Shown: piece after piece, positions 4,068 through 27,353 of the stretch
Layout: every line of letters begins with the position of its first letter
Numbering within the stretch: position 1 is the first letter of the stretch
DNA from: Escherichia coli
GTDB lineage: Bacteria; Pseudomonadota; Gammaproteobacteria; Enterobacterales; Enterobacteriaceae
Assembly (NCBI RefSeq): GCF_003790525.1
Contig: NZ_CP033635.1
Direction: 5' to 3' (one strand)
Length of the DNA stretch: 64,000 nucleotides
The notes under the pieces: model-generated
Databases searched by the model: none
The model's input: the letters and a program-made list of their open reading frames with translations, nothing else
What the model was told of the DNA's origin: nothing
Made by a program: the position numbers and the translations under genes

Positions 4068-5882
4068 CTACTCTCCCTGTTGTCTGGCTGACGGCAGTTT
4101 CGTCGCTTTGTTAACGTCATACCACCAGGTATCGATACCCAGGCTGTAAACAGGGCGTACAGCGGGGTGGGAGAATTTATCCCACCAGGCGAGACGGTCT
4201 TCCGCCATATACCACATTGGCAGCATGTAATAATTCCACGTTAATACGCGATCCAGTGCTCGCCCCAACGGCAGTAATTTTTCTTTATTTCCCTGCGCGG
4301 CAATAATTTGGTTGATCAGCGAGTCGATAACCGGGCTTTGCACGCCGGGGGCATTATAAGTGGAATTGATATATTCCGATGACCAGGAAATCTGTAAATC
4401 GGAACTGGGCCACGGCATCGCCCGCCATACGCGCGGCATCATGTCATAGTCGCGACTGCGCATGCGGTTGGTGATTTGAGAGTTATCCACCTTGCGAATA
4501 TCCATGTTGATACCCAGACGTTGCAGGCTGTGCTGGAACGGCAATACCCACTGACTATTACTGCTTGAGGGAAGCAATAATTCAAAGCTGAGTGGCTGAC
4601 CCGTTGTGGCATTAACGCGTTGCTGACCCTTCAGCACCCAGCCTGCTTCGTTAAGAAGTTTGTCGGCTTTTAACAGGTTGTCACGATCGTAGCCATCGCC
4701 TTTGGATACCGGCGGCTGGTAGATTTGCGTGAAGACTTCTGGCGGTAGATCTTTTTTCATTGGTGCCAGAAGCACCAGCTCCGCGGCGTCGGGGTAATTT
4801 CTGGCCGCGTATTCGGTATTCTGAAAATAACTGTTCGTGCGACTCCAGGCATTGTAAAACAACGCTTTGTTCATCCATTCAAAGTCAAAGGCGAGAGTGA
4901 TCGCTTCCCGCACCCGGCGATCGCTGAATACCGGACGTTGGATATTAAACGCCAGCCAGCGCGTATCCTGGGCTGATTCGTTCTTTTGCTCATCTTTGAT
5001 GATGTATTTTTTATCGAAATTTTTACCGGTATAGCGCGTGGCCCAGTTTTTGGCGTCGTTTTCCATACGCAAATCAAAGGCACCTGCTTTAAACGCTTCA
5101 AAGGCGACATTATCATCGAGGTAATAATCGTAGCGAATGGTGTCGAAATTCCAGCGTCCACGGTTTACCGGTAAGTTTGCTGCCCAGTAATCTTTTACGC
5201 GGGAATAGACAATATTTTGCCCCATTTTCCAGGACGTAATGCGGTACGGACCACTGGCAAGCGGAGGCGTGGCGAGCGGGTCGCTAAGTTTGTGATCTTT
5301 CCAGTACTTTTCTGGAAATACCGGCAGCGAAAACAGACTCAGCATATCTTCTTTGCCGGGTTTAGCTAACTCAATGCGCACGGTTAACGGCGCAATGGCT
5401 TTGACGGTGGTGCCTTTGTAGACCAGACGAAATTGCGGCACGCCTTCGGTCATAAATTTTTGAAAAGTAAACTCTACATCGCGGGCAGTAATGGGCGAAC
5501 CATCATGAAAACGGGCGCGCGGATTAATAGCGACCTCCACCCAGGAATAATCGTCAGCATAGCGTGCGCTTTCAGCAATCAGCGGGTAATAACTGCCTGG
5601 TTCGTCATCGGAAGTCGTAAATAGCGTGTCGTACAGCTGCTCGGTGCGTGCGCCCGGGTTGCCGCGTAGTGCATAGCGGTTGAAATTATCGAAGGTGCCG
5701 AGGGCGGACAACGTTATTTGCCCACCTTTTGGCGCGGCGGGGTTCACATAATCAAAATGGTTGAAATTAAATGCGTACCGGGGTTCGCCCAGTACGGCAA
5801 AGGCATAGCTTTCCTTGATAGCCTGCGCCTGCGCACCAAAGGTGAACAGAGCGATAAACAGCAGCAGTATGCGCACAATCAT
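4068..5882 (-). CDS. yejA: periplasmic oligopeptide/microcin C binding protein
   Basis: ORF 4068..5888 (TTG) trimmed to the ATG at 5882; N-terminal signal peptide; family 5 substrate-binding protein. Confidence 0.85.
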
Positions 5883-5963
5883 CTGCAACGGATTTCCTTT
5901 TACTCATCATTAGCCGCAATCCGGCATGCTTTCACTATGAATAATAAGGGACGTAAGCACACC

Positions 5964-7520
5964 TTACCACTGCGGCGTATACGGTTTCTTCAGCCAGCGA
6001 ACAAAATCGTCCAGCGGTAACGGGCGACTAATCCAGTAGCCTTGCATGAAATTAACGCCGCGTTCGCTTAGCCATCGTGCCTGTTCTGGCGTTTCGACCC
6101 CTTCAGCAACTGTCAGCATATTGAGACGTTTCGCCAGCGTCAGCACCGCGTCAAGTACGGGTGAAGTGATCGTTTCCGTACCGATGGCGTTGATAAATCC
6201 ACGATCAATTTTCAGATAATCGAGCGTAAAACGCTCAAGATAGATAAGCGCGCTGTGCCCGGTGCCGAAGTCATCAATAGCAATTTCTACGCCGACCGAA
6301 TGCAGCCAGGCGAAGAGTTGTGTGGCTTCTCGCTCTTTCAGCATATCGCGCTCGGTAATTTCCAGCACAATCTGGAAATGGTGTGCGGGCAGGGAAGTGA
6401 GCAGTTTCTGGATATCCGCTTTAAAGCTTTCGCTGTGCAAGTGGGCCGGCGCAATGTTAATGCCAAATTTGACGCCTACCGGCAGTACTTTTTCTAATTC
6501 TGCGGCATCGCGGGCAATCAACTCAAACAGGTGCTGAGTCAGTGGCACAATCATCTTTTGCGCTTCGGCAAAGTTAATGAAGGCATCCGGGGGGATTTCT
6601 CCTGCTACTGGATGCCGCCAGCGTAGCAGTACTTCCAGGCCCGTTACCCGCAAAGCTTGTGTATCAACCACCGGTTGATATACCACGTAAAATTGTTCGC
6701 GCTTGATGGCGGTCATGATTTCTCTGCCTGGGCGCATACGCACACTCATCAGGTAATAGCAGAGAAGTCCAACGAAAGTTCCACTCATGCCACCCAGTAA
6801 AAATGCGTACCACACATCGTTCCATGTCCAGTCATCCGCATAAAGCCGAACGGTCAGAGGAATGCCCGCAATTTTAGTTTCACGGACCGGCATGTCGGTT
6901 AATTCATTAACATTCATCAAACGTGAAGAAAAGGTAGATAGCGCAGTATTACCAATAATGAGGGCGAGGCCATCGTAATCTTCCTGCCGTGAACTATAAA
7001 AGAGTGAAGGCGTCAGGTTGAGATTCAGAGCGGCAAAGACGCCGCTATTTTTCAGCAAAGGGTTGCGATACCAGATGACGATTGCGGGTTTGTTCGGCAC
7101 CATCGGCGTACCGGGTAAGATCGCCATATCGACATTTTTATTAATGTCGAGCGCCGGAATCAATTCTTTTAGTGGAATGTCCATCTCACCAGTCGCAGAT
7201 GAACAGAATGTTTTTTTATCTTTCACCAGCACAAACGTACGGACATTCATGCTAAACGCCGCGCGAGCGGTCAGTTCGGGGTTAGCCTGCTGGCAGGTAT
7301 CTAAGGTCAGCGGCTGAAGCCGGTCAGTAGTGGATTTCAGGTCGGCAAAATAGGTATCGAGATACTTTTGTACGTCGGTAATCAGTGTGTCGTATTTGAC
7401 TTCGTGCTTATGCCAGGCCACTAAAAACTGAAGGCAGCTCACCAGTATCGCAATCATCACGCCTGCAACAATGCAGGTAAGCAGGAGCTTACGTCCAGAA
7501 TTGGGAGCGCGTATGAACAT
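5964..7520 (-). CDS. rtn: EAL-domain c-di-GMP phosphodiesterase, membrane-anchored
   Basis: ORF track 518 aa; N-terminal transmembrane segment plus C-terminal EAL domain. Confidence 0.85.
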   Translation of the reverse strand: MFIRAPNSGRKLLLTCIVAGVMIAILVSCLQFLVAWHKHEVKYDTLITDVQKYLDTYFADLKSTTDRLQPLTLDTCQQANPELTARAAFSMNVRTFVLVKDKKTFCSSATGEMDIPLKELIPALDINKNVDMAILPGTPMVPNKPAIVIWYRNPLLKNSGVFAALNLNLTPSLFYSSRQEDYDGLALIIGNTALSTFSSRLMNVNELTDMPVRETKIAGIPLTVRLYADDWTWNDVWYAFLLGGMSGTFVGLLCYYLMSVRMRPGREIMTAIKREQFYVVYQPVVDTQALRVTGLEVLLRWRHPVAGEIPPDAFINFAEAQKMIVPLTQHLFELIARDAAELEKVLPVGVKFGINIAPAHLHSESFKADIQKLLTSLPAHHFQIVLEITERDMLKEREATQLFAWLHSVGVEIAIDDFGTGHSALIYLERFTLDYLKIDRGFINAIGTETITSPVLDAVLTLAKRLNMLTVAEGVETPEQARWLSERGVNFMQGYWISRPLPLDDFVRWLKKPYTPQW

Positions 7521-16835: not shown

Positions 16836-18527
16836 ATGAAAACGCTGCTGATTATTGACGCTAATCTCGGTCAGGCACGCGCCTATATGGCGAAGACCCT
16901 GCTGGGCGCGGCGGCGCGAAAAGCAAAACTGGAAATCATCGACAATCCGAACGACGCAGAAATGGCGATTGTTCTCGGTGATTCCATCCCGAATGACAGC
17001 GCGCTGAACGGTAAAAATGTCTGGCTGGGCGATATTTCCCGGGCAGTTGCGCACCCTGAGCTGTTCCTGAGTGAAGCCAAAGGCCATGCGAAACCTTACA
17101 CTGCGCCGGTCGCTGCGACAGCACCGGTTGCCGCCAGCGGTCCGAAACGCGTAGTTGCGGTGACTGCTTGCCCGACTGGCGTAGCACACACCTTTATGGC
17201 GGCTGAAGCCATTGAAACCGAAGCGAAAAAACGTGGCTGGTGGGTGAAAGTTGAAACCCGTGGTTCTGTTGGCGCGGGTAATGCAATCACCCCTGAAGAA
17301 GTCGCAGCAGCGGATCTGGTGATTGTGGCGGCAGATATCGAAGTGGATCTGGCGAAATTTGCTGGTAAACCGATGTATCGCACCTCTACCGGTCTGGCGC
17401 TGAAGAAAACTGCGCAGGAACTGGATAAAGCGGTTGCTGAAGCAACGCCGTATGAACCAGCGGGCAAAGCTCAAACAGCGACCACTGAAGGTAAGAAAGA
17501 GAGTGCAGGCGCTTACCGTCACTTGCTGACGGGCGTCTCTTACATGCTGCCGATGGTCGTTGCAGGTGGTCTGTGTATCGCGCTTTCTTTTGCTTTTGGT
17601 ATCGAAGCGTTTAAAGAGCCGGGTACGTTGGCTGCGGCGCTGATGCAGATTGGTGGTGGTTCAGCCTTTGCGTTGATGGTGCCGGTACTGGCAGGTTATA
17701 TTGCCTTTTCCATTGCCGATCGTCCGGGTCTCACGCCGGGTCTGATTGGCGGTATGCTGGCGGTCAGCACCGGTTCTGGCTTCATTGGCGGTATTATTGC
17801 GGGCTTCCTGGCTGGTTACATTGCGAAGTTAATCAGTACGCAATTGAAACTGCCACAGAGTATGGAGGCGCTGAAACCGATTCTGATCATTCCGCTAATT
17901 TCCAGTCTGGTGGTCGGTCTGGCGATGATCTACCTGATCGGTAAACCGGTTGCTGGCATTCTCGAAGGGTTGACTCACTGGCTGCAGACCATGGGGACTG
18001 CGAATGCGGTTCTGCTGGGGGCGATCCTCGGTGGCATGATGTGTACTGACATGGGCGGTCCGGTAAACAAAGCAGCGTACGCATTCGGTGTGGGTCTGCT
18101 GAGTACTCAAACCTATGGCCCGATGGCGGCGATTATGGCGGCAGGTATGGTGCCACCGCTGGCAATGGGCCTGGCAACAATGGTGGCGCGTCGCAAATTC
18201 GACAAGGCGCAGCAGGAAGGGGGCAAAGCTGCTCTGGTACTGGGACTGTGCTTTATTTCGGAAGGTGCAATTCCGTTTGCTGCCCGTGATCCGATGCGTG
18301 TGCTGCCGTGCTGTATCGTGGGTGGGGCGCTGACTGGCGCAATCTCAATGGCGATTGGTGCGAAACTGATGGCACCGCACGGTGGTCTGTTTGTTCTGCT
18401 GATCCCTGGCGCGATTACGCCGGTATTGGGTTACCTGGTAGCCATTATTGCCGGTACGCTGGTGGCGGGGTTGGCCTATGCCTTCCTGAAACGTCCGGAA
18501 GTGGACGCAGTAGCGAAAGCAGCGTAA
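16836..18527 (+). CDS. fruA: fructose PTS IIB'BC component
   Basis: ORF track 563 aa; duplicated IIB domain plus IIC membrane domain. Confidence 0.95.
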   Translation: MKTLLIIDANLGQARAYMAKTLLGAAARKAKLEIIDNPNDAEMAIVLGDSIPNDSALNGKNVWLGDISRAVAHPELFLSEAKGHAKPYTAPVAATAPVAASGPKRVVAVTACPTGVAHTFMAAEAIETEAKKRGWWVKVETRGSVGAGNAITPEEVAAADLVIVAADIEVDLAKFAGKPMYRTSTGLALKKTAQELDKAVAEATPYEPAGKAQTATTEGKKESAGAYRHLLTGVSYMLPMVVAGGLCIALSFAFGIEAFKEPGTLAAALMQIGGGSAFALMVPVLAGYIAFSIADRPGLTPGLIGGMLAVSTGSGFIGGIIAGFLAGYIAKLISTQLKLPQSMEALKPILIIPLISSLVVGLAMIYLIGKPVAGILEGLTHWLQTMGTANAVLLGAILGGMMCTDMGGPVNKAAYAFGVGLLSTQTYGPMAAIMAAGMVPPLAMGLATMVARRKFDKAQQEGGKAALVLGLCFISEGAIPFAARDPMRVLPCCIVGGALTGAISMAIGAKLMAPHGGLFVLLIPGAITPVLGYLVAIIAGTLVAGLAYAFLKRPEVDAVAKAA

Positions 18528-18681
18528 TAAAAGGTGTGTTACAGGGCAGAAATTTCCTGCCCTGTAACATTTGATGAGCGCAAAGGGAATGACCGGTTTG
18601 TGAATGTAATTTTATGAATTTAAATGGTTTTATCTTTTAGTGGAAACCTGAAACTTTCATCAAACACTAAGGTTATTTCCT

Positions 18682-18712
18682 CAAGGGCAGATTAATTTCT
18701 GCCCTTTTTTAG
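18682..18712 (+). terminator. rho-independent terminator downstream of fruA
   Basis: aagggcagattaatttctgcccttttttag: stem followed by a T-run. Confidence 0.6.
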
Positions 18713-18950
18713 TGTTCCTGTTCTGTGCATCCCGTCACAAATTCCCCGTTTTTATAATTCAGGCATTTAATCGCGTTTTGTGAGCCTGCTCAAATCTGCC
18801 CATTTTGCCTCTCTGGCGGTAATTTACTTTACGTAAAACATGCATACTATGAGCACATGTTTAAATATGAACACATGTTTAAACCGTCTTTGCAGTATCA
18901 ATATTCTTGTGGATTGACAGGGTTGGTAATTTTTTACCAGAGGACGTGCT

Positions 18951-19892
18951 ATGCGCGAAAAGGATTATGTCGTAATTATAGGTTCGGCGAATATTGATGT
19001 CGCCGGATATTCACATGAATCATTAAATTATGCGGATTCAAATCCAGGTAAAATAAAATTTACGCCTGGTGGGGTAGGGCGCAATATTGCACAAAACCTG
19101 GCGTTGCTGGGTAATAAAGCCTGGCTACTGAGCGCCGTAGGCAGTGATTTTTATGGCCAATCGCTGCTAACGCAAACCAATCAATCTGGCGTTTATGTCG
19201 ATAAATGCCTGATTGTGCCGGGAGAAAATACGTCGAGCTATTTATCATTACTCGATAATACCGGTGAAATGCTGGTTGCTATAAATGACATGAATATTAG
19301 CAACGCTATTACAGCTGAATATCTCGCACAGCACCGTGAATTTATTCAGAGGGCAAAGGTCATTGTCGCGGACTGTAATATCAGTGAAGAGGCACTGGCA
19401 TGGATTCTGGATAATGCCGCCAACGTACCCGTATTTGTCGATCCGGTTTCAGCGTGGAAATGTGTCAAAGTGCGCGACCGTCTAAATCAAATCCACACTC
19501 TCAAGCCAAACCGCCTTGAAGCGGAAACCCTGAGTGGGATTGCGCTGTCAGGGCGTGAAGATGTGGCAAAGGTTGCCGCCTGGTTCCATCAACATGGCCT
19601 GAACCGACTGGTATTGAGCATGGGCGGCGACGGCGTTTATTACAGTGATATCAGCGGTGAAAGTGGTTGGTCTGCGCCGATCAAAACCAATGTCATTAAT
19701 GTTACCGGAGCGGGCGATGCCATGATGGCGGGACTTGCTTCGTGTTGGGTAGACGGAATGCCGTTTGCCGAATCTGTTCGTTTCGCACAGGGATGTTCGT
19801 CAATGGCGCTCTCCTGTGAATACACCAATAACCCCGATTTATCGATTGCCAACGTTATATCGTTAGTGGAGAACGTAGAATGTCTGAATTAA
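18951..19892 (+). CDS. psuK: pseudouridine kinase (PfkB family)
   Basis: ORF track 313 aa; GAGD ribokinase motif; operon with psuG and psuT. Confidence 0.85.
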   Translation: MREKDYVVIIGSANIDVAGYSHESLNYADSNPGKIKFTPGGVGRNIAQNLALLGNKAWLLSAVGSDFYGQSLLTQTNQSGVYVDKCLIVPGENTSSYLSLLDNTGEMLVAINDMNISNAITAEYLAQHREFIQRAKVIVADCNISEEALAWILDNAANVPVFVDPVSAWKCVKVRDRLNQIHTLKPNRLEAETLSGIALSGREDVAKVAAWFHQHGLNRLVLSMGGDGVYYSDISGESGWSAPIKTNVINVTGAGDAMMAGLASCWVDGMPFAESVRFAQGCSSMALSCEYTNNPDLSIANVISLVENVECLN

Positions 19893-20818
19893 AAATTTCC
19901 CCTGAATTATTACAAATCTCCCCGGAAGTGCAGGACGCTTTAAAAAACAAAAAACCGGTTGTGGCGCTGGAATCGACTATTATTTCTCACGGGATGCCGT
20001 TCCCACAAAATGCCCAGACCGCAATTGAAGTTGAAGAAACTATTCGTAAACAGGGCGCTGTACCTGCCACTATCGCCATTATTGGCGGCGTGATGAAAGT
20101 GGGTTTAAGCAAAGAAGAAATTGAATTGCTGGGTCGCGAAGGGCATAACGTGACCAAAGTTAGTCGTCGCGATTTACCTTTTGTCGTTGCCGCCGGAAAA
20201 AATGGCGCAACCACTGTGGCTTCAACGATGATTATTGCGGCGCTTGCCGGAATTAAAGTATTTGCCACCGGGGGAATTGGTGGTGTGCATCGCGGGGCGG
20301 AACATACCTTCGATATTTCTGCCGATTTGCAAGAACTGGCAAATACTAATGTCACCGTTGTTTGTGCCGGTGCAAAATCTATTCTCGATTTAGGATTAAC
20401 AACAGAATATTTAGAAACCTTCGGTGTGCCGTTAATTGGCTATCAGACAAAAGCGCTGCCTGCGTTTTTCTGCCGTACCAGCCCATTTGAAGTTAGTATT
20501 CGCCTTGATAGTGCCACGGAAATCGCTCGTGCAATGGCGGTGAAATGGCAAAGCGGTCTGAACGGTGGCCTGGTGGTGGCAAATCCGATCCCGGAACAGT
20601 TTGCGATGCCGGAGGAATCTATCAATGCAGCCATAGATCAAGCCGTCGCCGAAGCCGAAGAGCAGGGCGTTATTGGTAAAGAAAGCACACCGTTCCTGCT
20701 GGCTCGTGTTGCTGAACTGACTGGCGGTGACAGCCTGAAATCCAACATCCAACTGGTGTTCAACAACGCCATTCTGGCGAGCGAAATTGCCAAAGAATAC
20801 CAGCGTCTCGCGGGTTAA
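19880..20818 (+). CDS. psuG: pseudouridine-5'-phosphate glycosidase
   Basis: ORF track 312 aa; IndA family. Confidence 0.85.
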   Translation: MSELKISPELLQISPEVQDALKNKKPVVALESTIISHGMPFPQNAQTAIEVEETIRKQGAVPATIAIIGGVMKVGLSKEEIELLGREGHNVTKVSRRDLPFVVAAGKNGATTVASTMIIAALAGIKVFATGGIGGVHRGAEHTFDISADLQELANTNVTVVCAGAKSILDLGLTTEYLETFGVPLIGYQTKALPAFFCRTSPFEVSIRLDSATEIARAMAVKWQSGLNGGLVVANPIPEQFAMPEESINAAIDQAVAEAEEQGVIGKESTPFLLARVAELTGGDSLKSNIQLVFNNAILASEIAKEYQRLAG

Positions 20819-20911
20819 TTTCTGACGGGCAGAAAGCCGTCGCCCGTACTGATCATACATACCAAAACCTGGCGCTGACGCCGGGTTTACTGGCATGAAG
20901 GGAAAATCATT

Positions 20912-22162
20912 ATGGATATAATGAGAAGTGTTGTGGGGATGGTGGTGTTACTGGCAATAGCATTTTTGTTGTCAGTGAATAAAAAGAGCATCAGTTTGCG
21001 CACGGTTGGAGCCGCGTTGCTGCTACAAATCGCCATTGGCGGAATCATGCTCTATTTTCCACCAGGAAAATGGGCGGTAGAACAGGCGGCATTAGGCGTT
21101 CATAAAGTGATGTCTTACAGTGATGCCGGTAGCGCCTTCATTTTTGGTTCGCTGGTTGGGCCGAAAATGGATGTCCTCTTTGACGGTGCGGGTTTTATCT
21201 TCGCCTTTCGCGTACTCCCGGCGATTATCTTCGTCACTGCGCTCATTAGTCTGCTGTACTACATTGGCGTGATGGGGCTGCTGATTCGCATCCTTGGCAG
21301 CATTTTCCAGAAAGCCCTCAACATCAGCAAAATCGAATCTTTTGTTGCGGTTACCACTATTTTCCTCGGGCAAAATGAGATCCCGGCGATCGTTAAACCG
21401 TTTATCGATCGCATGAATCGCAACGAGTTGTTTACCGCAATTTGTAGCGGGATGGCGTCCATTGCGGGTTCGATGATGATTGGTTATGCCGGAATGGGCG
21501 TACCAATTGACTACCTGTTAGCGGCATCGCTGATGGCGATCCCTGGCGGGATTTTGTTTGCACGTATTCTTAGCCCGGCAACCGAGCCTTCGCAGGTCAC
21601 ATTTGAAAATTTATCGTTCAGCGAAACGCCGCCAAAAAGCTTTATCGAAGCGGCGGCGAGCGGTGCGATGACCGGGCTGAAAATCGCCGCTGGTGTGGCG
21701 ACGGTGGTAATGGTATTTGTGGCAATTATTGCGCTGATCAACGGCATTATCGGCGGAATTGGCGGCTGGTTTGGCTTCGCCAATGCTTCTCTGGAAAGTA
21801 TTTTTGGCTATGTGCTGGCACCGCTGGCGTGGATCATGGGTGTGGACTGGAGTGATGCCAACCTTGCGGGTAGCCTGATTGGGCAGAAACTGGCAATTAA
21901 CGAATTCGTCGCTTACCTGAGTTTCTCCCCATACCTGCAAACGGGCGGCACGCTGGAAGTGAAAACCATTGCGATTATCTCCTTTGCGCTTTGTGGTTTT
22001 GCTAACTTTGGTTCTATCGGTGTTGTCGTTGGGGCATTTTCGGCTATTTCGCCAAAACGCGCACCGGAAATCGCTCAGCTTGGTTTACGGGCGCTGGCAG
22101 CAGCAACGCTTTCCAACCTGATGAGCGCGACCATTGCCGGGTTCTTTATTGGTTTAGCTTGA
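20912..22162 (+). CDS. psuT: NupC-family nucleoside transporter
   Basis: ORF track 416 aa; CNT-family membrane protein; close paralog of nupX at 24099. Confidence 0.85.
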   Translation: MDIMRSVVGMVVLLAIAFLLSVNKKSISLRTVGAALLLQIAIGGIMLYFPPGKWAVEQAALGVHKVMSYSDAGSAFIFGSLVGPKMDVLFDGAGFIFAFRVLPAIIFVTALISLLYYIGVMGLLIRILGSIFQKALNISKIESFVAVTTIFLGQNEIPAIVKPFIDRMNRNELFTAICSGMASIAGSMMIGYAGMGVPIDYLLAASLMAIPGGILFARILSPATEPSQVTFENLSFSETPPKSFIEAAASGAMTGLKIAAGVATVVMVFVAIIALINGIIGGIGGWFGFANASLESIFGYVLAPLAWIMGVDWSDANLAGSLIGQKLAINEFVAYLSFSPYLQTGGTLEVKTIAIISFALCGFANFGSIGVVVGAFSAISPKRAPEIAQLGLRALAAATLSNLMSATIAGFFIGLA

Positions 22163-22169
22163 GTTTCAT

Positions 22170-22206
22170 TGCCGGATGTACGCCTTATTAAGCGTTGCAT
22201 CCGGCA
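22170..22206. repeat. REP-like palindromic element
   Basis: tgccggatgtacgccttattaagcgttgcatccggca, REP-type palindrome after the psuT stop. Confidence 0.6.
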
Positions 22207-22229
22207 ATCGCGCTATTGCAGATTATTTT

Positions 22230-22889
22230 TTACTGCATCATCCCGGAGAATTTATTCTCCGGGTCCATCTCCAGCGCCAGTCCTGACAACTGCTTTCTGT
22301 TTTTAATTAGATATCCTTTCTTGCTTTTAATTAATAAACCGTCGTGAATGAATTGCGCGAGAACATATAAAAGATGTCGATAAGAAACGCCTAAATACTC
22401 TGCCGCTTGCGTATGCTTTTCGTGATAAAGATCACCTTCTTGTGAGAGTAATATAAATGCTGCCAGGCGATTCACTAACGGAAATGATTGATTCTGAGTT
22501 AAAGAAACAATATTGCGATAATTTTTATGGCTTAAACTAACGCAGAGTTTTCGTAAAAATAGCGTGTCGTTTAATAACAGCGGACGGTAATGTTTCATGG
22601 GGAGTGCAAGGCACCAACACTCTTCAATCGCCTGCACCGCACGTGGTTCATGGTCTTTATCGATTAACTCAATCTCACCAATAAAACAGGGGGCGGCAAA
22701 GAAATCGATCAGCGACACGCGACCATTAGCAAGCGTGGCGTAAAGCCTGGCGCGGCCTCGCGTCAGGTAAAACAGCCATGACGGCTGTTGCCCTTCCTGC
22801 ACAATGTAGTCACGTGCTAAAAAATGAAACAGCCGTGCATCGGCTGAAACATCCGTTGAAAAGCAATCCTTAAACGCGGATTCACTCAT
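22230..22889 (-). CDS. yeiL: Crp/Fnr-family transcriptional regulator
   Basis: ORF 22230..22928 trimmed to the ATG at 22889 (MSESAFKD); cNMP-binding fold plus C-terminal HTH. Confidence 0.8.
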
Positions 22890-23057
22890 CAATTGCTGCT
22901 TAAGATCATTATTGTGGATTTCTTTCACGATATTTATCCGCTATGAGATTTCTCATATTTAGCATACGTACGCTGTTGTTAAGATTCAATCATCGGCCCG
23001 GTCGAATTTTCTTTGCTGTAGAAAAAATAACGCAACTGGAAACAGAGGAAATAAACA

Positions 23058-23999
23058 ATGGAAAAGAGAAAAATTATTCTGGATTGTGATCCGGGTCATG
23101 ATGATGCTATTGCAATGATGATGGCAGCGAAACATCCGGCGATTGATTTATTAGGTATCACCATTGTAGCGGGTAATCAGACGCTTGATAAAACATTAAT
23201 TAATGGCCTGAATGTTTGCCAGAAACTGGAGATTAATGTTCCGGTTTATGCGGGGATGCCACAACCCATTATGCGGCAACAAATCGTTGCCGATAATATT
23301 CACGGTGAAACCGGACTGGATGGCCCGGTATTCGAGCCGCTGACCCGCCAGGCAGAAAGCACTCATGCGGTGAAATATATCATCGATACCCTGATGGCAA
23401 GCGATGGCGATATCACTCTGGTGCCGGTTGGTCCGCTTTCAAATATCGCGGTGGCAATGCGTATGCAGCCCGCGATCCTGCCAAAAATCCGTGAAATTGT
23501 ACTGATGGGCGGCGCTTATGGTACTGGCAACTTCACGCCATCTGCCGAGTTCAACATCTTTGCGGACCCGGAAGCGGCGCGAGTGGTGTTCACCTCCGGC
23601 GTTCCATTAGTGATGATGGGCCTCGATCTCACCAACCAGACCGTTTGCACCCCGGACGTGATTGCTAGGATGGAAAGGGCAGGCGGCCCCGCCGGAGAGC
23701 TGTTCAGCGACATCATGAACTTCACTCTGAAAACGCAGTTCGAAAACTACGGTCTGGCTGGCGGCCCGGTACATGACGCCACCTGTATCGGTTATCTGAT
23801 TAACCCCGATGGCATTAAAACCCAGGAGATGTACGTCGAAGTGGATGTTAACAGTGGCCCTTGCTATGGGCGTACCGTCTGCGACGAGCTGGGCGTTCTT
23901 GGCAAGCCCGCCAATACCAAAGTCGGCATCACTATTGATACCGACTGGTTCTGGGGATTAGTCGAAGAGTGCGTGCGCGGCTACATCAAAACCCATTAA
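23058..23999 (+). CDS. rihB: pyrimidine-specific ribonucleoside hydrolase
   Basis: ORF track 313 aa; DCDPGHDD nucleoside hydrolase signature at the N-terminus. Confidence 0.9.
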
Positions 24000-24098
24000 G
24001 TGTTGATAACAAGCCGGGACAGTATCGCAAGATGCAGGCCCGGCGATTTCTGATGGGCAGAAAGCCGTCGCCCAAAATGACATGAAGAGATAATAACT

Positions 24099-25349
24099 AT
24101 GGATGTCATGAGAAGTGTTCTGGGAATGGTGGTATTGCTGGCAATTGCATTTTTGCTGTCAGTAAACAAGAAGAGGATCAGCCTGCGTACCGTTGGCGCG
24201 GCGTTAGTGTTACAGGTCGTGATTGGCGGCATTATGCTTTGGTTACCGCCAGGGCGTTGGGTCGCTGAAAAAGTCGCTTTTGGCGTCCATAAAGTGATGG
24301 CGTACAGCGACGCGGGTAGCGCATTTATCTTCGGTTCGCTGGTCGGGCCGAAAATGGACACGCTGTTTGATGGTGCAGGATTTATCTTTGGTTTCAGAGT
24401 ATTACCGGCAATTATCTTCGTCACCGCGCTGGTGAGTATTCTCTACTACATCGGTGTGATGGGGATCTTAATTCGCATTCTCGGCGGTATCTTCCAGAAA
24501 GCATTAAATATCAGCAAGATCGAGTCATTCGTCGCGGTCACTACCATTTTCCTCGGGCAAAACGAAATTCCGGCAATCGTCAAACCCTTTATCGATCGGC
24601 TGAATCGCAATGAATTATTTACAGCGATTTGTAGTGGCATGGCCTCGATTGCTGGTTCGACAATGATTGGTTACGCCGCACTGGGCGTACCTGTGGAATA
24701 TTTGCTGGCGGCATCGTTAATGGCGATCCCAGGCGGGATCTTGTTTGCCCGCCTGTTAAGCCCGGCTACGGAATCTTCGCAGGTTTCTTTTAATAACCTC
24801 TCTTTCACCGAAACACCGCCAAAAAGTATTATTGAGGCCGCTGCGACAGGGGCAATGACCGGGCTGAAAATCGCTGCGGGTGTGGCAACAGTGGTGATGG
24901 CATTTGTTGCCATCATTGCGTTAATTAACGGTATTATCGGCGGCGTTGGCGGCTGGTTTGGTTTTGAGCAAGCCTCGCTGGAGTCCATTTTAGGTTATCT
25001 GCTGGCCCCGCTGGCGTGGGTGATGGGGGTTGACTGGAGTGATGCAAATCTTGCCGGGAGTTTGATTGGGCAGAAGTTGGCGATCAATGAATTTGTCGCT
25101 TACCTCAATTTCTCACCTTATCTGCAAACAGCTGGCACGCTCGATGCTAAAACCGTGGCGATTATTTCCTTCGCGTTGTGCGGTTTCGCTAACTTTGGTT
25201 CTATCGGGGTAGTGGTTGGGGCATTTTCTGCGGTTGCGCCACACCGCGCGCCGGAAATCGCCCAGCTTGGTTTACGCGCGCTGGCGGCGGCGACACTTTC
25301 TAACCTGATGAGTGCCACCATTGCAGGATTCTTTATTGGCTTAGCGTAG
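24099..25349 (+). CDS. nupX: NupC-family nucleoside permease
   Basis: ORF track 416 aa; near-identical in length and sequence pattern to psuT. Confidence 0.85.
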   Translation: MDVMRSVLGMVVLLAIAFLLSVNKKRISLRTVGAALVLQVVIGGIMLWLPPGRWVAEKVAFGVHKVMAYSDAGSAFIFGSLVGPKMDTLFDGAGFIFGFRVLPAIIFVTALVSILYYIGVMGILIRILGGIFQKALNISKIESFVAVTTIFLGQNEIPAIVKPFIDRLNRNELFTAICSGMASIAGSTMIGYAALGVPVEYLLAASLMAIPGGILFARLLSPATESSQVSFNNLSFTETPPKSIIEAAATGAMTGLKIAAGVATVVMAFVAIIALINGIIGGVGGWFGFEQASLESILGYLLAPLAWVMGVDWSDANLAGSLIGQKLAINEFVAYLNFSPYLQTAGTLDAKTVAIISFALCGFANFGSIGVVVGAFSAVAPHRAPEIAQLGLRALAAATLSNLMSATIAGFFIGLA

Positions 25350-25363
25350 TGCGCGAGTTATGA

Positions 25364-25397
25364 GCCGGATAAGACGCGGTCAAGCGTCGAATCCGGC
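25364..25397. repeat. REP-like palindromic element
   Basis: gccggataagacgcggtcaagcgtcgaatccggc between the nupX and yeiI stops. Confidence 0.55.
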
Positions 25398-25404
25398 AAG
25401 ATTG

Positions 25405-26493
25405 TTACACCATCGGCACTAATGAAAGCGCGTTATCGGCAGACAGGGTAGGGTTGTTTAAGCTGCCGCTGGCGCGTGAAATTGCCGCGCAGGCCATCGC
25501 AAAACGGGCGCTGTCACGGAAACTGCTTCCTTCCAGAAAGCTATACACCAGGCCCGCCATAAAACCATCGTCAGCACCAAAACTGTCTACCGTCGTATGC
25601 GCTGGCGCAGTCAGCAAAAATTGTTCGCCATCCTTTTGGCTGCAATAAACAGACTCATCGGGCAAATAAACAAACAGTTGCTGAACGCCTTGCTGATGCA
25701 ACGCATTCACTGCGGCATTACGATCAGCATCGCGGGTTATCGGCTGGCCCCATAAAATTTCCAGCTCCGACAAAGTGGGTTTCAGAGTGTGAATATGCGC
25801 CAGCCAGTGTTTGATTTTGCCCGCTTTGAATTCTGAAACGGTATCGACAAACACCGGGATTTCATCAGCGAGGGTAAAGACCCATTCCAGCGCCTCGGCT
25901 GTCAGGTTACAATCTGCCAGTACCACGCCCGCATGACGAAGTAAATCGCGCGACCCGTTCAGTAGTTGCGGTGTCAACTGATCCAGCAGATGGGTATCGT
26001 TAATCGCCAGCACGGTTTGATCGTCTCGATTGGCAATTGCCAGATACGTCGATGTGCTTTGACCATGTAAACGAACGCAGCCGGAGACATTCACGCCGGC
26101 GCGGCGCGTTTCTTCCAGGAGCATTTCGCCATAAAAGTCATCGCCAATCACTGAAAGCAAATGAACGTCGCGGCCTAACAGCGCCAGATTGTGGGCGATA
26201 TTGCGTCCAACGCCGCCTGCCGAGCAATGAATGGTACCGGGATGAGAAGCCGCTTGCGGGTAACGGATATCCGCCATCCCGCGAATATCCATATTGATTG
26301 TCCCCACCACTACGCAGTATTCCTGCTCGGTGAGAATGTAACCTTTGCCTTTAATCCGTCCTTTGCGCATTAAATCCATAATATGCGCTGCAACACGCGA
26401 ACGGCTGATTTGCAGCATATCCGCAATTTCGTTCTGCTGAATCAGCGGGTTACGCCTTAATATTGCAAGGATCTCCTTCTCCCGGTTATTCAT
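25405..26493 (-). CDS. yeiI: sugar/nucleoside kinase with N-terminal HTH domain (PfkB family)
   Basis: ORF track 362 aa; N-terminal winged-helix region plus ribokinase-like domain; paralog of psuK. Confidence 0.8.
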   Translation of the reverse strand: MNNREKEILAILRRNPLIQQNEIADMLQISRSRVAAHIMDLMRKGRIKGKGYILTEQEYCVVVGTINMDIRGMADIRYPQAASHPGTIHCSAGGVGRNIAHNLALLGRDVHLLSVIGDDFYGEMLLEETRRAGVNVSGCVRLHGQSTSTYLAIANRDDQTVLAINDTHLLDQLTPQLLNGSRDLLRHAGVVLADCNLTAEALEWVFTLADEIPVFVDTVSEFKAGKIKHWLAHIHTLKPTLSELEILWGQPITRDADRNAAVNALHQQGVQQLFVYLPDESVYCSQKDGEQFLLTAPAHTTVDSFGADDGFMAGLVYSFLEGSSFRDSARFAMACAAISRASGSLNNPTLSADNALSLVPMV

Positions 26494-26495
26494 CT

Positions 26496-27353
26496 TCAGG
26501 CTACCGCTTTTTCAGTTTGTTGCGCTTTCAGCCAGGCGATCTCTTCTGCCCAGATATCCGGGTTGATGGTTTCAAGGATCAGCGGAATGCCGTCGAAACG
26601 GTCGTCCTGCATGATCCAGCGGAACGCATCATGACCGATATTGCCTTCACCGAGGCTATGATGGCGGTCAACGCGGCTGCCAAAGGTGCTTTTCGCATCG
26701 TTAAGGTGCATCCCGCGCAGATACTTAAAGCCGACAATACGGGCAAAATCCGCGAACGTTTTCTCGCATTCGGCAGAAGTACGCAAATCATACCCGGCAG
26801 CGAAAGCATGGCAGGTATCAATGCAGACGCCGACGCGGGATTTATCTTCCACGCCGTCGATAATCGCCGCGAGATGTTCGAATTTAAACCCTAAGTTACT
26901 GCCCTGACCGGCGGTGTTTTCAATCACCGCTGTCACACCATGAGTTTTATCCAGCGCAATGTTGATGGATTCGGCAATACGCGCAAGGCAATCCTCTTCT
27001 GAAATCTGCATCAGATGGCTGCCAGGGTGGAAGTTGAGCAAAGAAAGCCCCAGCTGTTCGCAACGCTGCATTTCATCTATAAAGGCATCGCGCGATTTTT
27101 CCAGAGCTTCAGTGACCGGATGTCCGAGGTTAATCAGATAACTGTCGTGGGGAAGAATTTGCGCCGATGTGTAGTGATATTTTTCACAGGCGGCTTTGAA
27201 TTCATCGATGGTTTGCGTCGTGAGCGGTGCGGCACGCCACTGACGTTGGTTTTTGGTGAACAAGGCAAACGCGGTTGCGTCGATTTCGGCGGCGCGAATT
27301 GCGGCATTTGCCAGACCGCCAGCAGCACTAACGTGCGCTCCAATGTATTTCAT
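26496..27353 (-). CDS. nfo: endonuclease IV (AP endonuclease)
   Basis: ORF track 285 aa; TIM-barrel AP endonuclease family 2. Confidence 0.95.

Follow-up and report, generated by a model that had tools for sequence, protein, structure and literature searches.

The transporter paralogs psuT and nupX of Escherichia coli are a divergent and rarely used recombination substrate

Gene content of the psuK-yeiI locus

A nucleoside catabolism cluster of Escherichia coli was analysed in a stretch of 64,000 nucleotides (nt) from contig NZ_CP033635.1, with a focus on its two transporter genes, psuT and nupX. This stretch is called the window, and the positions of open reading frames (ORFs), motifs and spacers are given in its coordinates. 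The 8.4 kb region at 18500-26900 is 100% identical to E. coli SMS-3-5 (NC_010498.1) by BLAST, in which RefSeq gives the order fruA, psuK, psuG, a NupC/NupG transporter (psuT), yeiL, rihB, nupX, yeiI and nfo. The two transporter genes form a real but weak recombination substrate that is rarely used. The features of the cluster are as follows, where REP stands for repetitive extragenic palindromic and HTH for helix-turn-helix; allele classes and hybrid loci are described below.

18951-19892, plus strand: psuK, pseudouridine kinase of the PfkB family, class-A allele (NF007355 equivalog, 714.7 bits, cutoff 540; RefSeq)
19880-20818, plus strand: psuG, pseudouridine-5'-phosphate glycosidase (PF04227, 442 bits; RefSeq)
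20827-20845, plus strand: conserved motif GGGCAGAAAGCCGTCGCCC upstream of psuT, at which the homology between the paralogs starts
20912-22162, plus strand: psuT (yeiM), CNT/NupC-family transporter of 416 amino acids (TIGR00804, 516.2 bits, cutoff 442)
22163-22229, no strand: REP-like palindromic spacer 3' of psuT (hairpin of -27.1 kcal/mol, z = -4.3)
22230-22928, minus strand: yeiL, Crp/Fnr-type regulator (NF007707, 418.5 bits, cutoff 180), missing from the hybrid loci
23058-23999, plus strand: rihB, ribosylpyrimidine nucleosidase (NF007417 equivalog, 727.8 bits, cutoff 459), missing from the hybrid loci
24055-24073, plus strand: second copy of the conserved motif, upstream of nupX
24099-25349, plus strand: nupX (yeiJ), CNT/NupC-family transporter of 416 amino acids (TIGR00804, 498.9 bits, cutoff 442)
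25350-25404, no strand: REP-like palindromic spacer 3' of nupX (hairpin of -23.7 kcal/mol, z = -4.0), ortholog of the psuT-yeiI spacer of E. albertii
25405-26493, minus strand: yeiI, winged-HTH and PfkB kinase, class-A allele (NF007416, 810.8 bits, cutoff 561)

The ORFs lie exactly where the initial annotation of this DNA had placed them, and the NCBIfam and Pfam models agree with its identifications, including the two PfkB kinases (psuK and yeiI) that share the cluster with rihB and the Crp/Fnr-type yeiL. The two 416-residue NupC-family transporters do lie about 3 kb apart, their start codons being separated by 3,187 bp. The 3' end of psuK overlaps psuG by 13 nt. For PsuG, NCBIfam gave no family at E<=0.001 despite the strong Pfam match listed above. 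PsuT contains all three Pfam CNT domains (Nucleos_tra2_N, Gate and Nucleos_tra2_C), and both PsuT and NupX resemble NupC and vcCNT of the CNT family by TIGR00804 and these three domains. In RefSeq, the psuT of SMS-3-5 carries no gene symbol, though its protein is 99.8% identical to K-12 PsuT. YeiL combines a cNMP_binding domain (PF00027) with a Crp-type HTH (HTH_Crp_2, PF13545), and YeiI combines HTH_24 at residues 1-48 with PfkB at residues 58-348.

Weak transport of uridine and cytidine has been reported for NupX, no uptake of uridine, cytidine or xanthosine was detected for PsuT, and both proteins fall in the vcCNT-containing clade (PMC11241209). YeiI is described as uncharacterised (PMC9061257). 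PsuT may carry pseudouridine, for which its operon context is the one basis.

The genes, order and orientation match those of K-12, psuK(yeiC)-psuG(yeiN)-psuT(yeiM)-yeiL-rihB(yeiK)-nupX(yeiJ)-yeiI, at 94-97% nucleotide identity over the locus. The layout had been called known K-12 architecture, and it is identical. K-12 differs from SMS-3-5 in an extra REP element of ~51 bp after nupX (L003 8353-8458) and a psuT-type nupX 3' end. A rearrangement suggested by truncated BLAST matches was rejected: this is the normal K-12 layout, and the matches are truncated because the extra REP element interrupts the alignment. The cluster (fruA / psuK-psuG-psuT / yeiL / rihB-nupX / yeiI / nfo) is thus an ordinary, already annotated E. 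coli locus.

Divergence, crossover and conversion between psuT and nupX

The two transporter genes align over 1,251 nt without gaps, with 79.1% nucleotide and 88.2% protein identity. The identity at codon positions 1, 2 and 3 is 89, 95 and 52.5%, and it ranges from 63 to 87% in 60-nt windows. Synonymous divergence (dS) reaches 1.30 by the Nei-Gojobori method, at a ratio to nonsynonymous divergence (dN/dS) of 0.059. The longest exact run in SMS-3-5 is 20 bp, as expected by chance at such identity (P ~0.9). The nucleotide identity of the pair is similar, 78-79%, in all eight panel E. coli genomes with an intact nupX, and the longest perfect run in the remaining panel E. coli genomes is 20-38 bp. 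An efficient RecA substrate would combine near-identity with identity blocks well above ~25 bp, a combination that is lacking at 79% identity and a 20-bp longest run. The premise of high nucleotide identity in the initial annotation therefore fails, and its description of the genes as nearly identical holds loosely, at the protein level only. At such low nucleotide identity, the pair is a poor recombination substrate. The likeness of the two proteins is maintained by purifying selection and not by ongoing homogenisation, and the pair illustrates that high protein similarity of neighboring paralogs does not equal high DNA identity or active homogenisation. The initial annotation had also spoken of paralogous modules, which is misleading. 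PsuK and YeiI share 39% of their residues and the transporters 88%, which are very different depths of divergence, and nupX belongs to a separate module; the kinase pair and the transporter pair therefore do not descend from a single module duplication.

Natural hybrid genes were searched for in 5,426 complete E. coli genomes with a 2,851-nt query from a hybrid locus, sized so that normal genomes cover <=73% of it in one place, and a threshold of >=80% was applied. An earlier query, a synthetic psuT::nupX chimera of 5,051 nt, still joined normal genomes as one place, which made its count useless, and it exposed the first true hybrid. Eight genomes reached the threshold, namely five hybrids and three deletions associated with IS1. 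In each hybrid (SY019, EH10-18-47, E203449, CFSAN004176 and 11PC; ~0.1% of the genomes), 3,187 bp are deleted, a single intact 416-codon transporter gene stands between psuG and yeiI, and yeiL and rihB are gone. All five genes show a single switch from psuT to nupX at diagnostic sites, at five different junctions (nt ~757-791, 925-947, 965-977, 1084-1088 and 1198-1247). The EH10-18-47 hybrid matches the K-12 psuT allele in one half and the K-12 nupX allele in the other, each at 100% identity, and the halves meet in a 23-nt identity block; the blocks at the other four junctions measure 5-17 nt, and small mosaic patches accompany two junctions. The five junctions are all located within the 3' 40% of the gene, its most similar part (chance ~0.01). 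The segments concerned are:

21668-22162, plus strand: psuT 3' 40% (nt 757-1251), location of all five natural crossovers and of the conversion tracts
24855-25349, plus strand: nupX 3' 40% (nt 757-1251), its counterpart in crossovers and conversion
21679-24865, plus strand: example of the deleted 3,187-bp interval for the SY019-type junction, from junction mapping

The exact hybrid proteins recur in other assemblies, on 6, 4, 6 and at least 29 contigs, and the psuG-hybrid-yeiI context of the CFSAN004176 type is repeated on at least 24 contigs. This recurrence of proteins and neighbors in independent assemblies argues against an assembly artefact. Among the genomes carrying the locus, yeiL-rihB is wholly absent from only seven, and it occurs at no more than two places per genome. 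The literature searched contained no description of natural psuT/nupX hybrids. The three IS1-associated deletions are of another kind: ET734 has lost yeiL, rihB and the nupX 5' end, 8600 has lost the psuG 3' end, psuT, yeiL and the rihB 5' end, and TOK-001 carries a further IS1-associated deletion in the locus. In strain CH436, IS1 interrupts psuK.

Gene conversion was examined at 183 diagnostic sites in ten Escherichia haplotypes and E. albertii. In SMS-3-5, the comparison of diagnostic sites revealed no conversion tract between psuT and nupX, only isolated psuT-type sites. The nupX gene of L011 (deposited as E. coli, with nfo 94% identical to SMS-3-5, and belonging to a divergent Escherichia lineage) carries 19 consecutive psuT-type sites at nt ~1060-1251 (~190 nt), including a perfect match to psuT of 137 nt (P ~2e-12). 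In K-12, nupX has a psuT-type 3' end (~55 nt), stop codon and first 11 downstream nucleotides. Runs of consecutive donor-type sites, or identity far beyond chance, as expected of sporadic conversion, are thus found in L011 and K-12 and not in SMS-3-5. The tracts are restricted to the last <=190 nt and run in the direction from psuT to nupX. Conversion thus does occur, but only sporadically and in short tracts at the 3' end, and the genes are not homogenised. Across strains, the psuT 3' end and its spacer also fall into two allelic types, and the K-12 nupX 3' end corresponds to one of them. The initial annotation had proposed the pair as a potential substrate for recombination or conversion, and this idea survives in part: cross-strain comparison does reveal five independent crossover deletions between the paralogs and short 3'-end tracts in other lineages, but neither event is seen in the window and the high identity invoked for them does not exist.

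Mechanistically, psuT and nupX are direct repeats whose divergence makes them a weak homeologous substrate. Rare single crossovers within perfect-identity blocks of 5-23 nt in the 3' 40% yield the intact psuT::nupX hybrid and delete yeiL and rihB, and rare non-crossover events copy short psuT 3' ends into nupX. The direct-repeat geometry, the in-register junctions, the bias toward the most similar segment and the mosaic patches fit RecA-mediated homeologous recombination, and we infer that such events would be held back by sequence divergence and mismatch repair.

Haemoglobin Lepore and opsin hybrids arise by unequal crossover between neighboring, diverged paralogs. The psuT/nupX case resembles them in that an in-register single crossover between tandem paralogs produces an intact hybrid and deletes the interval, a pattern of independent hybrids found here in five genomes with five junctions. 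It differs in being bacterial and haploid, in the 79% identity of its paralogs and in an interval that holds two unrelated genes, yeiL and rihB. The reciprocal, anti-Lepore tandem duplication was not seen, as no single-piece full-length match stood at the top of the search, in a weak test that joined non-collinear pieces and left 1,065 genomes at >=80% coverage. The tufA and tufB genes are kept almost identical genome-wide. Short non-reciprocal tracts are copied between psuT and nupX as between tufA and tufB; unlike in the tuf pair, conversion is sporadic, reaches <=190 nt at the 3' end and leaves the genes without homogenisation. Direct repeats that are 3 kb apart and 79% identical have undergone homeologous recombination in ~0.1% of genomes; this natural rate, with its mapped junctions, could help to calibrate studies of the recombination and mismatch-repair barrier.

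Two gene units and the origin of the paralogs

Synteny was compared by tblastn mapping in one genome per species among the matches listed, a sample that leaves E. fergusonii and most cryptic clades outside. E. albertii, Citrobacter sp. FP75, C. werkmanii and Leclercia adecarboxylata carry fruA-psuK-psuG-psuT followed by convergent yeiI-nfo-yeiH, and yeiL-rihB-nupX is missing between psuT and yeiI in all four. The spacer between psuT and yeiI in E. albertii is orthologous to the one 3' of E. coli nupX. In Superficieibacter electus, yeiL-rihB-nupX is located between type I restriction-modification genes (hsdS/hsdM) and yjiA/cstA-like genes. The E. coli plasmid p98228 (NZ_CP173464.1, 65 kb; L100 4962-9272) carries psuK-psuG-psuT and a convergent yeiI-like kinase at ~76% nucleotide identity to the chromosomal copy, adjoining inovirus Gp2-type and AlpA genes, and six or seven plasmid records match this four-gene unit. 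Given its presence on a plasmid, the psuK-psuG-psuT/yeiI unit is itself mobile.

In a neighbor-joining protein tree, NupX and the rihB-linked Superficieibacter transporter form a clade (93% bootstrap), which is sister to the Escherichia and Citrobacter PsuT clade (93%). The PsuT orthologs track the species, and paralogs of the same genome never group together. Consistently, nupX is equidistant (77-80% nucleotide identity) from every psuT, that of Citrobacter included. Both the tree and the identity matrix thus lack the pattern of concerted evolution, in which the paralogs of a genome resemble each other more than they resemble orthologs of other species. A sliding-window test of whether nupX is a mosaic, with its 5' and 3' halves nearer to different relatives, gave no clear signal, the nucleotide distances being saturated.

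These distributions are most economically read as a yeiL-rihB-nupX module that is situated inside an older psuKGT/yeiI unit. The first unit, psuK-psuG-psuT with the convergent HTH-kinase gene yeiI, would provide uptake, phosphorylation and C-glycoside cleavage of pseudouridine. The second, yeiL-rihB-nupX, would provide a regulator, a pyrimidine nucleosidase and a transporter, and in E. coli it is placed inside the first, between psuT and yeiI. The direction of the original rearrangement, that is, insertion of the second unit in E. coli or its loss elsewhere, is the part of this explanation that we infer. As the two units have separate distributions, psuT and nupX are old paralogs of two distinct orthologous lineages and not products of a recent local duplication. 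We hold it highly probable that the cluster is built of two units and that its old transporter paralogs form a weak homeologous substrate with rare crossovers and conversions, neither of which has affected SMS-3-5. Three points weigh against this explanation. Recombination between the genes is very rare (5/5,425 genomes) and absent in the window. At 5-23 nt, the junction blocks are no longer than the minimal efficient processing segment, which Shen and Huang in 1986 reportedly put at ~23-27 bp. Finally, species sampling is limited, which makes any preference for an E. coli insertion over an ancestral, repeatedly lost module tentative.

The strong form of the idea in the initial annotation, a recent tandem duplication kept near-identical by frequent gene conversion, could draw on the equal length and ungapped alignment of the genes, their 88% protein identity, a homology that extends to the shared upstream motif and the REP-like downstream spacers, and the conversion tracts of some lineages. 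It is largely refuted, and we give it almost no credence: the tracts never exceed the last <=190 nt, dS stands at ~1.3 with 52% identity at third positions, the identity of the paralogs is only 78-79% in eight of eight panel genomes, nupX is equally far from all psuT genes, and NupX groups with the Superficieibacter transporter instead of E. coli PsuT. It is just as hard to believe that the hybrid loci are collapsed repeats of faulty assemblies. Three of the five do come from chromosome-level whole-genome shotgun records rather than finished genomes, but modern assemblers do not collapse 79%-identical repeats, the five junctions differ and each shows a clean single switch within an intact ORF of 416 codons, and the identical proteins and CFSAN004176-type neighbors return in the independent assemblies counted above.

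Two further alternatives deserve more weight, though we consider both unlikely. Since the junction blocks do not exceed the minimal efficient processing segment, a RecA-independent short-homology route to the hybrids, by replication slippage or single-strand annealing, has some chance of being correct, the more so as a common internal nupX deletion in the same locus used 3-4 nt of microhomology. Such a route does not readily account for five of five events that are in register and keep the reading frame, for their clustering in the most similar 3' 40%, or for the patchy mosaic sites near two junctions, which are expected of heteroduplex repair. The yeiL-rihB-nupX module may also have occupied this site ancestrally, with repeated losses from E. 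albertii, Citrobacter and Leclercia through crossover between psuT and nupX and no insertion in the E. coli lineage. A crossover of this kind regenerates the exact psuKG-transporter-yeiI layout, the psuT of E. albertii, like the 11PC hybrid, ends in a stop codon of the nupX type followed by a nupX-type spacer, and the split of NupX and PsuT predates that of Escherichia and Citrobacter. This scenario, which we regard as improbable to a similar degree, requires at least three independent losses with all junctions at the extreme 3' end, whereas the genes of E. albertii, Citrobacter and Leclercia are PsuT-type throughout; moreover, the Superficieibacter module lies in an unrelated, variable context, and the mobile, plasmid-borne copy of the four-gene unit lacks the module.

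In Hafnia, Serratia and Klebsiella sp. BIGb0407 (L016-L018 ~5790-6920), the kinase gene preceding psuG matches YeiI at ~51% identity over 351-361 residues, and PsuK at ~59%. The alignment suggests an HTH-fused pseudouridine kinase, and it hints that YeiI may be a regulator-kinase of the pseudouridine pathway.

Allele classes, nupX decay and the upstream motif

The psuK and yeiI genes each fall into two sharply separated allele classes in E. coli, named A and B, with 80-81% nucleotide identity and a dS of 1.0-1.3 between classes, versus a dS of 0.05 for nfo. Class B was found in ~1,199 of the 5,426 genomes for psuK; for yeiI, ~2,057 genomes carry class B and ~3,291 class A, with few intermediates. 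The classes of the two genes assort independently, with class B at a frequency of 22-38%. Class B is ~92% identical to E. albertii, the same, species-level distance as for the flanking nfo. A protein database search for a donor of class-A YeiI outside Escherichia found none above 86% identity, and no description of the dimorphism was found in the literature searched. The fruA-psuK intergenic region (18528-18950) is AT-rich, with a GC content of ~0.39-0.41, and class-A and class-B haplotypes are ~48-63% identical there, so the psu promoter region was replaced together with psuK. The dimorphism makes the locus stand out as unusually diverse within the E. coli core genome and may merit a study of its own.

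An internal nupX deletion of 1,135 bp (window 24166-25300, nupX nt ~68-1202) is identical in 971 of the 5,426 genomes (18%), among them O25:H4 strains and the type strain ATCC 11775. It is the deletion with 3-4 nt of microhomology referred to above, and leaves a 5' remnant of 66 nt (L002 6780-6947). In RIVM_C036204, nupX is frameshifted. From the widespread deletion and the frameshift it follows that nupX is undergoing decay in a considerable fraction of the species, and the hybrids together with the deletion imply that rihB, yeiL and nupX are dispensable in nature. A bolder proposal would be that yeiL-rihB-nupX is a cassette gained and lost by host recombination, with the transporter paralogy as portable homology and without a dedicated recombinase, and that the A/B dimorphism of psuK and yeiI is an old polymorphism under selection on modified-nucleoside catabolism and not a one-off import; we offer this only as speculation, and doubt it somewhat more than either the short-homology or the ancestral-module alternative.

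The 19-nt motif upstream of both transporter genes has the consensus GGGCAGnnnGCsGTCGCCy, and it also precedes the orthologs in E. albertii, Citrobacter, Leclercia and Superficieibacter, within a spacer that is otherwise divergent. An Rfam scan of the locus gave no match to the motif and only two sub-threshold chance matches. The consensus folds as a weak 7-bp hairpin with two covarying pairs and a stability z of ~0, and the motif could be a candidate small RNA element or protein-binding site.

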